From the NCBI RefSeq assembly GCF_003790525.1, contig NZ_CP033635.1: a stretch of DNA of 64,000 nucleotides; one strand, 5' to 3'. Below the pieces are notes generated by a model, which saw nothing but the letters and a program-made list of their open reading frames with translations, did not search any database and had not been told where the DNA came from. Shown here one piece after another: positions 24,083-28,921 of this stretch; the stretch's first letter is position 1, and each line of letters starts with the position of its first letter. Both the position numbers and the translations under genes were made by a program. This DNA comes from Escherichia coli. Its GTDB lineage: Bacteria > Pseudomonadota > Gammaproteobacteria > Enterobacterales > Enterobacteriaceae.

Positions 24083-26350
24083 ATGAAAGTATTAATTGTT
24101 GAAAGCGAGTTTCTCCATCAAGACACCTGGGTCGGTAACGCCGTTGAGCGTCTGGCAGATGCTTTAAGCCAGCAAAATGTTATCGTGATTAAATCCACCT
24201 CCTTTGATGATGGTTTTGCCATTCTCTCTTCAAACGAAGCCATTGACTGCCTGATGTTCAGCTACCAAATGGAACATCCGGACGAACATCAAAACGTCAG
24301 ACAATTGATCGGTAAGCTTCATGAGCGCCAACAAAACGTGCCGGTCTTCCTGTTGGGTGATCGGGAAAAAGCCCTCGCCGCAATGGACCGGGATCTGCTG
24401 GAGCTTGTCGATGAATTCGCCTGGATACTGGAAGATACCGCCGACTTTATCGCCGGACGCGCCGTTGCCGCGATGACCCGCTACCGCCAGCAGCTGTTGC
24501 CGCCACTGTTCAGCGCGCTGATGAAATATAGCGACATCCATGAATATTCCTGGGCAGCGCCAGGCCACCAGGGCGGCGTTGGTTTTACTAAAACACCCGC
24601 CGGACGTTTCTACCATGACTACTATGGTGAAAACCTGTTCCGCACCGACATGGGCATCGAACGCACTTCCCTCGGTTCTTTGCTTGACCATACTGGCGCA
24701 TTTGGCGAAAGCGAAAAATATGCCGCACGCGTATTTGGTGCCGATCGCTCCTGGTCGGTAGTCGTCGGTACTTCCGGCTCTAACCGCACCATCATGCAGG
24801 CTTGCATGACCGATAACGATGTCGTGGTCGTTGACCGTAACTGCCATAAATCCATCGAACAAGGCTTGATGCTGACAGGCGCGAAACCGGTCTACATGGT
24901 GCCAAGCCGCAACCGCTACGGCATTATCGGGCCAATCTATCCGCAGGAAATGCAACCTGAAACCTTGCAGAAGAAAATCAATGAAAGCCCGCTGACTAAA
25001 GACAAAGCCGGGCAAAAACCGTCTTACTGCGTGGTGACCAACTGCACCTATGACGGCGTGTGTTATAACGCTAAAGAAGCACAGGATCTGCTGGAAAAAA
25101 CCTCCGATCGTCTGCACTTTGACGAAGCCTGGTACGGCTATGCACGTTTCAACCCGATCTATGCCGATCACTATGCCATGCGCGGCGAACCTGGCGATCA
25201 CAACGGTCCTACCGTTTTCGCCACCCACTCCACCCACAAACTGCTGAATGCGCTGTCACAGGCCTCTTATATTCATGTACGTGAAGGTCGTGGGGCGATT
25301 AACTTCTCCCGCTTCAACCAGGCCTACATGATGCATGCCACCACCTCCCCGCTGTATGCCATCTGCGCATCCAACGACGTGGCGGTGTCGATGATGGACG
25401 GCAACAGCGGCCTGTCACTGACCCAGGAAGTGATCGACGAAGCGGTTGATTTCCGTCAGGCGATGGCGCGGCTATATAAAGAGTTCACCGCTGACGGTAG
25501 CTGGTTCTTCAAACCGTGGAACAAAGAAGTCGTCACCGACCCACAAACCGGCAAAACCTATGACTTTGCTGACGCACCAACCAAACTGCTGACCACCGTT
25601 CAGGACTGCTGGGTCATGCATCCGGGCGAAAGCTGGCACGGCTTCAAAGATATTCCGGATAACTGGAGTATGCTCGACCCGATTAAAGTCAGCATCCTTG
25701 CTCCGGGAATGGGTGAAGATGGTGAACTGGAAGAAACCGGTGTTCCGGCGGCGCTGGTCACAGCCTGGCTTGGTCGCCACGGCATTGTGCCTACCCGTAC
25801 CACTGACTTCCAGATTATGTTCCTGTTCTCTATGGGCGTGACCCGTGGGAAATGGGGAACTCTGGTTAACACCCTTTGCTCCTTCAAACGCCACTATGAT
25901 GCCAACACACCGCTGGCGCAGGTGATGCCGGAACTTGTTGAACAATATCCTGACACTTACGCGAACATGGGGATTCACGATCTGGGTGACACCATGTTTG
26001 CCTGGCTGAAAGAAAACAACCCTGGCGCACGGTTGAATGAAGCCTATTCCGGCCTACCGGTGGCGGAAATCACCCCGCGTGAAGCGTACAACGCGATTGT
26101 CGACAACAATGTCGAACTGGTATCCATTGAAAATCTGCCAGGACGTATCGCGGCAAACTCAGTTATCCCGTATCCGCCAGGAATCCCGATGCTGCTGTCT
26201 GGTGAAAACTTCGGCGATAAAAACAGTCCGCAAGTAAGTTATTTACGCTCGCTGCAATCCTGGGACCATCATTTCCCTGGATTTGAACACGAAACAGAAG
26301 GGACAGAAATTATTGACGGTATTTACCACGTTATGTGTGTGAAAGCGTAA
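24083..26350 (+). CDS. adiA: Acid-inducible (biodegradative) arginine decarboxylase
   Basis: 755 aa from MKVLIVESEF…; paralogous architecture to CadA. Confidence 0.95.
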   Translation: MKVLIVESEFLHQDTWVGNAVERLADALSQQNVIVIKSTSFDDGFAILSSNEAIDCLMFSYQMEHPDEHQNVRQLIGKLHERQQNVPVFLLGDREKALAAMDRDLLELVDEFAWILEDTADFIAGRAVAAMTRYRQQLLPPLFSALMKYSDIHEYSWAAPGHQGGVGFTKTPAGRFYHDYYGENLFRTDMGIERTSLGSLLDHTGAFGESEKYAARVFGADRSWSVVVGTSGSNRTIMQACMTDNDVVVVDRNCHKSIEQGLMLTGAKPVYMVPSRNRYGIIGPIYPQEMQPETLQKKINESPLTKDKAGQKPSYCVVTNCTYDGVCYNAKEAQDLLEKTSDRLHFDEAWYGYARFNPIYADHYAMRGEPGDHNGPTVFATHSTHKLLNALSQASYIHVREGRGAINFSRFNQAYMMHATTSPLYAICASNDVAVSMMDGNSGLSLTQEVIDEAVDFRQAMARLYKEFTADGSWFFKPWNKEVVTDPQTGKTYDFADAPTKLLTTVQDCWVMHPGESWHGFKDIPDNWSMLDPIKVSILAPGMGEDGELEETGVPAALVTAWLGRHGIVPTRTTDFQIMFLFSMGVTRGKWGTLVNTLCSFKRHYDANTPLAQVMPELVEQYPDTYANMGIHDLGDTMFAWLKENNPGARLNEAYSGLPVAEITPREAYNAIVDNNVELVSIENLPGRIAANSVIPYPPGIPMLLSGENFGDKNSPQVSYLRSLQSWDHHFPGFEHETEGTEIIDGIYHVMCVKA

Positions 26351-26467
26351 CCACTATTCCGCTGAAGGCGTAATTGTTAAATAACATTACGCCGCCTAGC
26401 TTGAGGCCTTTTAAGTATGGCAACGTTTTCATAAAAATTGCTGCAAACAAAAAATGTCATACTTTTT

Positions 26468-26494
26468 GCGCGGTCCCACCCCGCGCTTTTTTTT
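26468..26494 (+). terminator. Rho-independent terminator downstream of adiA
   Basis: Stem gcgcgg / ccgcgc with 7-nt loop followed by TTTTTTTT. Confidence 0.6.
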
Positions 26495-26685
26495 GCCTGT
26501 TATTTATCCTTTTTTTAGCCTGTAAAAAAATATGTACATGAGAAATTACTATAAAAATTTGTAATATTAGTAAAACTCGTTATTTTTATGCATGTTTATA
26601 TTCATCATACAATTATATAACCATTTCCCGGTATCGCTTCGCTTTAGCGAGAACTGGTCTTTTATTCGCACTCAGGAGTACATGT

Positions 26686-27447
26686 ATGAGGATTTGCAGC
26701 GACCAACCTTGTATTGTTTTATTGACTGAAAAAGATGTCTGGATAAGGGTGAATGGGAAAGAACCTATTAGCCTTAAAGCTAACCACATGGCGTTATTAA
26801 ATTGTGAAAATAATATTATCGACGTCTCCTCTCTTAATAACACTTTGGTTGCTCATATTAGTCACGACATCATCAAAGATTACCTCCGGTTTCTGAATAA
26901 AGATCTCTCGCAAATACCAGTATGGCAACGTAGCGCTACGCCCATCCTCACCCTGCCATGCCTGACGCCAGACGTCTTTCGCGTTGCCGCGCAACATAGC
27001 ATGATGCCCGCTGAAACTGAGTCAGAAAAGGAACGAACACGTGCATTATTATTCACTGTGCTATCCCGTTTTCTCGACAGTAAAAAATTCCTTTCATTAA
27101 TGATGTATATGTTACGTAATTGTGTAAGTGACAGCGTTTATCAAATTATTGAAAGCGATATCCACAAAGACTGGAATCTTAGTATGGTAGCCAGTTGTTT
27201 ATGTCTTAGCCCAAGTCTGTTAAAGAAAAAGCTGAAAAGCGAAAACACCAGTTATAGCCAAATAATCACCACCTGCCGCATGCGTTATGCCGTAAATGAA
27301 TTAATGATGGACGGTAAAAATATCTCTCAGGTATCACAGTCCTGCGGCTACAACAGTACGTCGTACTTTATTTCTGTCTTTAAAGACTTCTACGGTATGA
27401 CGCCGCTGCATTATGTTAGTCAGCACAGAGAACGCACTGTCGCCTGA
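26686..27447 (+). CDS. adiY: AraC-family regulator of the arginine-dependent acid resistance genes
   Basis: 253 aa; C-terminal AraC HTH; between adiA and adiC. Confidence 0.93.
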   Translation: MRICSDQPCIVLLTEKDVWIRVNGKEPISLKANHMALLNCENNIIDVSSLNNTLVAHISHDIIKDYLRFLNKDLSQIPVWQRSATPILTLPCLTPDVFRVAAQHSMMPAETESEKERTRALLFTVLSRFLDSKKFLSLMMYMLRNCVSDSVYQIIESDIHKDWNLSMVASCLCLSPSLLKKKLKSENTSYSQIITTCRMRYAVNELMMDGKNISQVSQSCGYNSTSYFISVFKDFYGMTPLHYVSQHRERTVA

Positions 27448-27583: not shown

Positions 27584-28921
27584 ATGTCTTCGGATGCTGA
27601 TGCTCACAAAGTGGGCTTAATCCCCGTCACCCTGATGGTGTCGGGGAATATTATGGGGTCAGGTGTTTTTCTGTTACCTGCAAACCTGGCCTCCACTGGC
27701 GGGATTGCCATTTATGGATGGTTGGTGACGATTATCGGTGCGCTGGGGCTCTCGATGGTATACGCCAAAATGTCGTTCCTCGACCCAAGTCCTGGTGGTT
27801 CTTACGCTTACGCCCGCCGCTGCTTTGGCCCGTTTCTCGGTTATCAAACCAACGTCCTCTACTGGCTGGCCTGCTGGATCGGCAATATCGCCATGGTGGT
27901 CATTGGCGTAGGATATTTAAGTTACTTCTTCCCGATTCTGAAAGATCCACTGGTATTAACCATCACCTGCGTCGTGGTGCTGTGGATCTTCGTCCTGCTG
28001 AACATTGTCGGTCCGAAAATGATCACCCGCGTGCAGGCCGTTGCCACCGTGCTGGCGCTGATCCCCATCGTCGGGATTGCCGTATTTGGCTGGTTCTGGT
28101 TCCGTGGTGAAACCTATATGGCGGCATGGAACGTCAGCGGCCTGGGCACCTTCGGCGCGATTCAAAGTACCCTTAACGTTACGCTGTGGTCGTTCATCGG
28201 TGTGGAAAGTGCCTCCGTTGCCGCAGGTGTGGTGAAAAACCCGAAACGCAACGTCCCTATCGCCACCATTGGTGGGGTATTGATTGCCGCCGTTTGCTAT
28301 GTGCTCTCCACCACCGCGATTATGGGGATGATCCCTAATGCCGCACTGCGCGTTTCTGCCTCGCCATTCGGTGATGCCGCACGGATGGCGTTGGGTGACA
28401 CCGCCGGGGCCATTGTTTCCTTCTGCGCAGCTGCGGGTTGCTTAGGTTCACTGGGCGGCTGGACGTTGCTGGCGGGTCAAACGGCGAAAGCCGCTGCCGA
28501 TGACGGACTGTTCCCACCGATTTTTGCCCGTGTAAATAAAGCGGGCACGCCAGTGGCGGGGCTGATTATCGTCGGTATTTTGATGACCATCTTCCAGCTC
28601 AGTAGCATTTCGCCAAACGCGACTAAAGAGTTCGGTCTGGTGTCTTCCGTGTCGGTCATCTTTACACTGGTGCCATATCTTTACACCTGTGCGGCGTTAC
28701 TGCTGCTCGGCCACGGTCACTTTGGTAAAGCACGCCCGGCATATCTGGCAGTGACTACCATTGCCTTCCTCTACTGCATCTGGGCCGTGGTGGGGTCCGG
28801 GGCGAAAGAGGTTATGTGGTCATTTGTCACCCTAATGGTCATCACCGCCATGTATGCGCTGAATTACAACCGGCTGCATAAAAACCCGTATCCCTTAGAT
28901 GCACCAATAAGCAAAGATTAA
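27584..28921 (+). CDS. adiC: Arginine:agmatine antiporter
   Basis: 445-aa APC-family transporter, paralogous to CadB. Confidence 0.95.

Follow-up and report, generated by a model that had tools for sequence, protein, structure and literature searches.

The 144 nt that follow adiA in this stretch of Escherichia coli DNA (26351..26494) are very probably a 3′UTR in which hairpin 2 serves both as the sole terminator and as the 3′ module of a homologue of the small RNA (sRNA) AdiZ, with hairpin 1 placed on the mRNA side of the predicted cut. A preliminary description of the adiA–adiY spacer had proposed two successive terminators giving graded termination, or an unannotated short transcript between them. 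The two-terminator proposal was not borne out, since hairpin 1 lacks a U-tract and was not called by a terminator scan. The short transcript fared better in that an AdiZ homologue is encoded at 26408..26494 (54.5 bits), but such an RNA has already been published, and it ends in hairpin 2 rather than between the terminators. As for its origin, Salmonella AdiZ comes from RNase E cleavage of the adiA mRNA, not from a promoter of its own or from partial termination (PMC12746102).

Locus and annotation

Throughout, "the window" denotes the whole 64-kb stretch that was analyzed. Its open reading frames (ORFs) and the RefSeq annotation give the gene order melR, adiA, adiY, adiC (27584..28921), with the TAA stop codon of adiA at 26348..26350. 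The 451 bases around the spacer are 100% identical to E. coli SMS-3-5 (NC_010498.1), and the same region occurs in 5415 of 5426 complete E. coli genomes. The RefSeq records of K-12 and SMS-3-5 carry no annotated feature in the adiA–adiY interval. The predicted fold of the 3′UTR contains four helices, two of which were absent from the preliminary description, namely a 10-bp stem (26413..26422/26455..26464) and a weak mini-hairpin (26394..26407). The features discussed below are as follows:

24083..26350, + strand: adiA, encoding biodegradative arginine decarboxylase; parental mRNA (NC_010498.1 RefSeq annotation mapped on the window, ORF list)
26351..26494, + strand: complete adiA 3′UTR, 144 nt, comprising hairpin 1, mini-hairpin, AdiZ stem-loop, and terminator (MFE fold)
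26367..26393, + strand: hairpin 1, arms GGCGTAAT/ATTACGCC (RNA GGCGUAAU/AUUACGCC), with an 8-bp outer stem and a 3-bp inner GUU/AAC stem
26394..26407, + strand: mini-hairpin GCCU(AGCUUG)AGGC just before the U-run; weak, −4.7 kcal/mol, z −0.85, alone not significant
26408..26412, + strand: predicted RNase E site and AdiZ 5′ end, C-UUUU, by homology with Salmonella GUC/UUUUUUUU (cut at the slash), uncertain by a few nt
26408..26494, + strand: putative AdiZ sRNA of E. coli, with a length of ~87 nt (SMS-3-5) or 86 nt (K-12), from covariance model and fold
26413..26464, + strand: AdiZ stem-loop by predicted fold, 10-bp stem with arms AAGUAUGGCA (26413..26422) and UGUCAUACUU (26455..26464), 32-nt A/U-rich loop (26423..26454)
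26463..26494, + strand: putative Hfq-binding module and intrinsic terminator, consisting of UUUUU (26463..26467), GCGCGG-N7-CCGCGC (26468..26486), and U8 (26487..26494)
26686..27447, + strand: adiY, AraC/XylS activator of adiA; downstream gene (ORF list, RefSeq annotation)

Two ORFs, 26374..26541 (+, 55 aa, TTG start) and 26331..26450 (−, 39 aa), cross the hairpins and the terminator. We ruled out a small protein because 1-nt indels between K-12 and SMS-3-5, located in the hairpin-1 loop and in an A-run, shift the frame. Ribosome profiling of E. coli under acid stress reported new sORFs near kbp/csiR and the gadW 3′UTR, and none near adiA or adiY in the passages of that work that were searched.

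Several further observations concern the locus at large. Three matches to the adiA–adiY spacer fall on plasmid-typed records, as do matches to dmsA (7 places) and ptsG (5); the records in question are probably either replicons typed wrongly or large plasmids of chromosomal origin. Just 3′ of the terminator, at 26509..26519, SMS-3-5, other Escherichia species, and an albertii-like allele carry about 11 extra bases, CCTTTTTTTAG, which K-12 does not have. These bases form a T7/A7 inverted repeat, TTTTTTTA..TAAAAAAA (26510..26530), in the region upstream of adiY. Another, small inverted repeat, TCGCT..AGCGA at 26643..26661, precedes the adiY start codon by about 25–40 nt. Its loop is polymorphic (C/T) between SMS-3-5 and K-12, and the repeat may be a structure in the adiY 5′UTR.

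An E. coli homologue of AdiZ

AdiZ, formerly STnc1180, was described in Salmonella enterica by Kanda et al. (Nucleic Acids Res 2025; PMC12746102). In that organism, RNase E cuts the adiA 3′UTR to give an Hfq-dependent sRNA of ~90 nt on northern blot, which is induced together with adiA under acidic, anaerobic conditions, depends on the adiA promoter and on AdiY, and lacks an internal promoter (PMC12746102). The RNA is lost upon RNase E inactivation (rne-1) and reduced in Δhfq; its 5′ end lies 12 nt past the stop codon at an 8-U run, and deleting the 8 U lowers AdiZ (PMC12746102). Structure probing revealed a stem-loop with the stem A11–C18/G55–U64 and a 24-nt single-stranded region, and three seeds mediate repression of ptsG, pykF, and dmsA (PMC12746102). 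The same authors sorted adiZ homologues into Escherichia–Shigella, Citrobacter, and Salmonella clusters, built an E. coli ΔadiZ host, and remarked that normoxic interactome studies in E. coli had not captured AdiZ reads in significant number (PMC12746102). The literature searched yielded the Salmonella paper only, and no data from E. coli on AdiZ expression, processing, or adiA 3′/5′ ends. Accordingly, what we say of RNase E processing, Hfq dependence, and targets derives from the Salmonella literature only; the structures, conservation, and AdiZ homology were computed here.

We built a covariance model from 17 Salmonella and Citrobacter AdiZ sequences, with Escherichia excluded. The model returned a single match in the window, at 26408..26493 (+), with an E value of 3e-14 and over the full model length. 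The predicted fold of 26408..26494 runs from a 5′ U-run through the 10-bp stem, the 32-nt A/U-rich loop, and a U5 linker to the terminator and U8. This arrangement mirrors the probed Salmonella structure, with the stem of 26413..26464 matching Salmonella A11–C18/G55–U64. A scan against Rfam 15 at E ≤ 10 placed no family at its gathering threshold, the best scores being 22.9 for RprA (threshold 70) and 22.5 for ncS54 (threshold 43). We rejected these and the other sub-threshold matches (GP20-a among them) as driven by the terminator; AdiZ/STnc1180 is absent from Rfam 15.

The adiA loci were taken from one genome per species and their 3′UTRs were extracted and aligned. Across 25 Escherichia, Citrobacter, and Salmonella sequences, little or no variation affects UUGCUGCAA, UGUCAUAC, the U-run, GCGCGG..CCGCGC, or the U-tail. 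Within the AdiZ stem, the 3′ arm UGUCAUAC is invariant, and changes in the 5′ arm preserve pairing (G·U to A-U, bulges). The E. coli sequence C-UUUU-(G/A)AGUAUGGCA aligns with Salmonella C-UUUUUUUU-GAGGAUGGCA; because this U-run context aligns with the mapped Salmonella 5′ end, we infer that E. coli AdiZ begins near 26408..26412, give or take a few nt. An adiA-like gene of Citrobacter amalonaticus S646 (L019) has a different C-terminus, an unrelated downstream region, and no AdiZ or terminator module, and probably represents a decarboxylase paralogue, not the adi locus itself.

Selection appears to act on the entire UTR. Relative to SMS-3-5, the AdiZ part is 94–98% identical across Escherichia (97–98% in E. 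albertii and E. whittamii), and the upstream 58 nt are 85–97% identical in other Escherichia species. The four-fold degenerate sites of adiA are only 63–68% identical between SMS-3-5 and E. albertii, E. whittamii, and E1V33. UTR identity is thus well above that of the four-fold sites, and we conclude that the whole 144-nt UTR is under purifying selection.

Taken on homology and predicted fold, the spacer feature is the E. coli copy of the known AdiZ locus and not a new one. The E. coli and Salmonella RNAs have in common their location (adiA 3′UTR, same strand, upstream of adiY), a stem-loop followed by a terminator, a 5′ U-run, and a 3′ half made up of UUGCUGCAAA, UGUCAUAC, the U-run, GCGCGG..CCGCGC, and the U-tail. 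They differ in the sequence between stop codon and sRNA, which is 12 nt in Salmonella as against ~57 extra nt, hairpin 1 among them, in E. coli. The U-run at the putative cleavage site also differs, with 4 U in E. coli versus 8 U in Salmonella, and the site and efficiency of cleavage may differ as a consequence of the shorter run.

Other enterobacterial sRNAs processed by RNase E from 3′UTRs include CpxQ (from cpxP), SroC (from gltI), and NarS (from narK). The predicted E. coli AdiZ resembles this class in that the intrinsic terminator of the mRNA would double as the Hfq-binding 3′ end of the sRNA, RNase E would release it, and it would be co-regulated with its parental gene. Unlike the class in general, a conserved stable hairpin would be left on the adiA mRNA side of the cut.

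The terminator

Hairpin 2 was given exact coordinates in the preliminary description (26468..26494), including its tract of 8 T. Six G-C pairs enclose a 7-nt loop (−11.1 kcal/mol, z −3.29), and the 8 T follow directly 3′ of the stem (26487..26494). By its stem and U-tract, hairpin 2 is a canonical intrinsic terminator. A scan of 25800..27200 (1.4 kb) gave this hairpin as its one hit, against 1.1 expected from shuffles; since a single terminator-like match is no more than shuffles produce, the case for a real hairpin 2 is built on conservation. Its core does not vary among the 25 aligned sequences and is also kept in Yokenella, Kluyvera, and Hafnia.

The adiA terminator forms the 3′ end of AdiZ in Salmonella, where the Hfq-binding module (U-rich stretch plus terminator) was reported to be nearly perfectly conserved and the remainder of adiZ to be cluster-specific (PMC12746102). 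In our alignment, the U-rich stretch, the terminator hairpin, and the 3′ poly(U) of the putative Hfq-binding module all fall in invariant columns.

In Yokenella and Kluyvera, an ORF starting ATGATTTTAATGGTCAC (MILMVTKDEF...) begins about 15–25 nt after the adiA terminator. In Kosakonia, the same ORF directly follows adiA and the terminator is absent. E. coli differs in having a ~190-nt A/T-rich spacer before adiY.

Hairpin 1

Hairpin 1 is real, as had been proposed, and stable, although the span first given to it (26367..26395) was 2 nt too long. The predicted energy is −15.3 kcal/mol (z −3.75), and none of 200 shuffles folds as well. The bases immediately 3′ are GCCTAGCTTGAGG (RNA GCCUAGCUUGAGG), with no T-run or U-tract, and the terminator scan of 25800..27200 did not call the hairpin. 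Because the U-tract is absent, hairpin 1 does not qualify as an intrinsic terminator.

Of 5426 E. coli genomes, 5412 carry the hairpin, each at a single place, and the window holds no second copy when up to 3 mismatches are allowed. Its stem is the same in 7 Escherichia lineages, and even the E. coli allele that diverges most retains it unchanged; its loop differs between strains in sequence and by 1 nt in length. The adjoining mini-hairpin is likewise strain-variable, K-12 having GGCC-UUA-GGCC in its place. Outside Escherichia, C. amalonaticus and C. sedlakii fold a hairpin at the homologous place, after a shared CUAUUCCG and before GCCUGG, in which both partners differ in 2 of the 8 pairs (G-C to U-A, A-U to C-G) and another loop has taken the place of the first. 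This covariation reflects one phylogenetic split, is effectively one observation, and carries modest weight. Within that limit, the compensatory changes speak more for a structure in RNA (or in a single strand) than for a sequence to which protein binds. Non-homologous hairpins also fold right after the adiA stop codon in Yokenella and Kluyvera.

Salmonella and the C. freundii group have AdiZ and lack hairpin 1, so the hairpin is dispensable for AdiZ biogenesis. As it lies 5′ of the predicted cut, the adiA message would keep it as its 3′ end, and the most likely role of the hairpin is to cap the cleaved adiA mRNA. Stem-loops that stabilize mRNA from the 3′ side, such as REP hairpins, block PNPase and RNase II. 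Hairpin 1 resembles such elements in being stable, in lacking a U-tract, and in being sited to become the 3′ end of the upstream fragment. It differs from REP hairpins in being unrepeated, and its stabilizing role is one that we infer.

Alternative readings

Two stable hairpins in series could be tandem terminators that grade adiA termination before adiY, and the Salmonella study cites work in which the adiA terminator attenuates transcription of downstream genes (PMC12746102). Against this reading, GCCUAGCUUGAGG stands after hairpin 1 instead of a U-tract, the scan calls one terminator, and Salmonella and most Citrobacter keep the terminator without hairpin 1, which makes tandem termination highly improbable. 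The stem-loop, terminator, and U-tail would equally suit a primary sRNA, that is, an independent gene between the hairpins with its own promoter, and by eye a weak TTGTTA-17-TAGCTT can be found at 26375..26403. The −10 of this candidate is unconserved, however (K-12 has TGGCCT), and our scan of 25800..27200 found no promoter-like site on the + strand; its three consensus matches, all on the − strand, compare with a shuffle expectation of 3.3. With Salmonella AdiZ also absent when the adiA promoter is removed and dependent on RNase E (PMC12746102), an independent gene is very unlikely. A longer E. coli isoform of ~130–144 nt, cut near the stop codon and including hairpin 1, has in its favor the purifying selection on the upstream 58 nt (85–97% versus 63–68% at four-fold sites) and the shortness of the U-run at 26409..26412. 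Yet the Salmonella/Citrobacter model aligns at full length from 26408, and the context C-UUUU-(G/A)AG-UAUGGCA matches the mapped Salmonella 5′ end; we regard a longer isoform as unlikely, if worth keeping in mind.

Other readings concern hairpin 1 itself. It forms an inverted repeat that precedes the adiY start by about 290 bp, with a sequence invariant in Escherichia, and could be a DNA palindrome recognized by a regulator, of adiY for instance, rather than an RNA structure. We give this little credence: half-site spacing differs by 1 nt between strains, the site is a single copy with no related site in the window, and in Citrobacter both arms have changed such that pairing rather than sequence is kept and the center is replaced. 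Stem-loops after E. coli genes are often REP elements, which raises the prospect that hairpin 1 is a REP/BIME-like copy or a functionless, decaying remnant. Its occurrence at one place per genome, the lack of a second copy in the window, and conservation far above the neutral expectation leave this idea barely credible.

Proposed mechanism

Our preferred reading is thus that of a processed 3′UTR with a single terminator. Under this model, 26351..26494 would be the 3′UTR of an adiA mRNA induced by acid and anaerobiosis, and hairpin 2 with U8 would be its only intrinsic terminator as well as the Hfq-binding 3′ module of AdiZ. By analogy with Salmonella, RNase E would cut the adiA transcript at the U-run near 26408..26412 to yield an RNA of ~86 nt (26408..26494). 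Hfq would stabilize the released AdiZ, which would present seeds in the 32-nt A/U-rich loop and pair with the start regions of metabolic mRNAs. In this manner, AdiZ may couple arginine-dependent acid resistance with the metabolism of carbon and with respiration. Hairpin 1 would stay on the adiA mRNA, where it may shield the message from 3′-to-5′ exonucleases, keep the cleavage site clear of terminating ribosomes, or both.

Candidate seeds and target pairing

The ptsG seed of Salmonella AdiZ is not conserved in Escherichia (PMC12746102). We examined pairing in silico between AdiZ and the −60..+30 regions of E. coli ptsG, dmsA, and pykF, scoring 14-nt sliding windows against a random-segment background and counting exact complements. 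When full-length AdiZ was paired with 130-nt targets in RNAduplex, the duplexes were long, interrupted by many loops, and uninterpretable, and the sliding windows were used instead. K-12 AdiZ carries perfect complements of at least 9 nt to all three Salmonella targets (ptsG 9, dmsA 11, and pykF 9 nt). By chance, 3 × 90 nt should contain 0.076 sites reaching 9 nt or more and 0.004 reaching 11 nt or more (background rate from the masked window). The candidate seeds are:

26414..26420, + strand: candidate 5′ ptsG seed, K-12 allele UGAGUAUGG; 9 Watson–Crick pairs plus G·U extension to ptsG −24..−16
26424..26434, + strand: candidate dmsA loop seed CGUUUUCAUAA; complementary without mismatch over 11 nt to the region of the dmsA start codon
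26442..26450, + strand: candidate pykF loop seed UGCAAACAA; 9-nt perfect complement to pykF +17..+25

For ptsG, the segment −24..−16 (CCAUACUCA), which overlaps the Shine–Dalgarno sequence, complements nt 5–13 of K-12 AdiZ, and the predicted duplex with its G·U extension reaches −18.1 kcal/mol (empirical p 0.005, 400 random segments). The match depends on position 26413: among complete E. coli genomes, 3630 have G (K-12-like), whereas 1740, with SMS-3-5 in their number, have A. An A at this position cuts the ptsG match from 9 to 7 nt and turns a G·U pair of the AdiZ stem into A-U, giving a stronger internal stem. For dmsA, the segment −2..+9 (UUAUGAAAACG), which spans the start codon, complements AdiZ nt 17–27 in an Escherichia-specific part of the loop, and for pykF, the segment +17..+25 (UUGUUUGCA, codons 6–9) complements AdiZ nt 35–43. 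At 99% identity or above, the dmsA region is found in 5384 of 5423 genomes and the ptsG region in 5135 of 5424.

These predicted seeds are not those of Salmonella. The validated Salmonella ptsG seed is CCUGAGUAUU, for which Escherichia has UUUCAUAAAAA at the homologous position; the Escherichia-specific CGUUUUCAUAA stands in place of CCUGAGUAUU. Where Salmonella has the pykF seed GAGGAUGG, E. coli has GAGUAUGG or AAGUAUGG, and AdiZ of the L004 lineage carries CGUUUCCAU. A useful comparison is SgrS, a ptsG repressor, which shares with AdiZ the ptsG site CCCAUACUCAGGAG around the Shine–Dalgarno sequence. The K-12 allele UGAGUAUGG contains the GAGUAU core, whereas a third of E. coli genomes, SMS-3-5 among them, carry AAGUAUGG. 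SgrS and E. coli AdiZ differ in that their loci and regulation are unrelated and in that the AdiZ motif sits in the 5′ arm of a stem, not in a loop.

Collectively, the candidate seeds suggest conservation of targets with turnover of seeds. A joint reading, which we put forward as possible and somewhat short of probable, is that E. coli AdiZ keeps ptsG, dmsA, and pykF through different seeds, with G/A at 26413 tuning ptsG, and that hairpin 1 is a selected cap that uncouples AdiA output from sRNA release in Escherichia and C. amalonaticus/C. sedlakii, but not in Salmonella. Neither the seed-turnover nor the hairpin-1-cap reading was seen in the main text of the AdiZ paper (PMC12746102).

In Yokenella, Kluyvera, and some other Enterobacteriaceae, adiA 3′UTRs of 53–110 nt contain (U)CCUGAG(U/A), the core of the Salmonella ptsG/SgrS-like seed, adjoining the terminator. 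The ptsG seed together with the terminator may represent the ancestral AdiZ core, with Escherichia having lost the seed at that position.

Significance

The finding is mainly one of annotation, in that the RefSeq records of K-12 and SMS-3-5 and Rfam 15 are empty here, yet the locus encodes a homologue of a published sRNA. In Salmonella, that sRNA connects glucose uptake, glycolysis, and DMSO respiration with acid resistance of the arginine-dependent kind. Two modest new leads emerge, namely a conserved hairpin that would stay with the mRNA after cleavage and a set of re-wired candidate seeds. If the latter holds true, E. coli would show neatly how an sRNA can exchange its seeds and still hold on to its targets. 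If the former holds true, the adiA transcript would be a case of a 3′UTR with a dedicated hairpin that protects the mRNA once its tail is harvested as a regulator.
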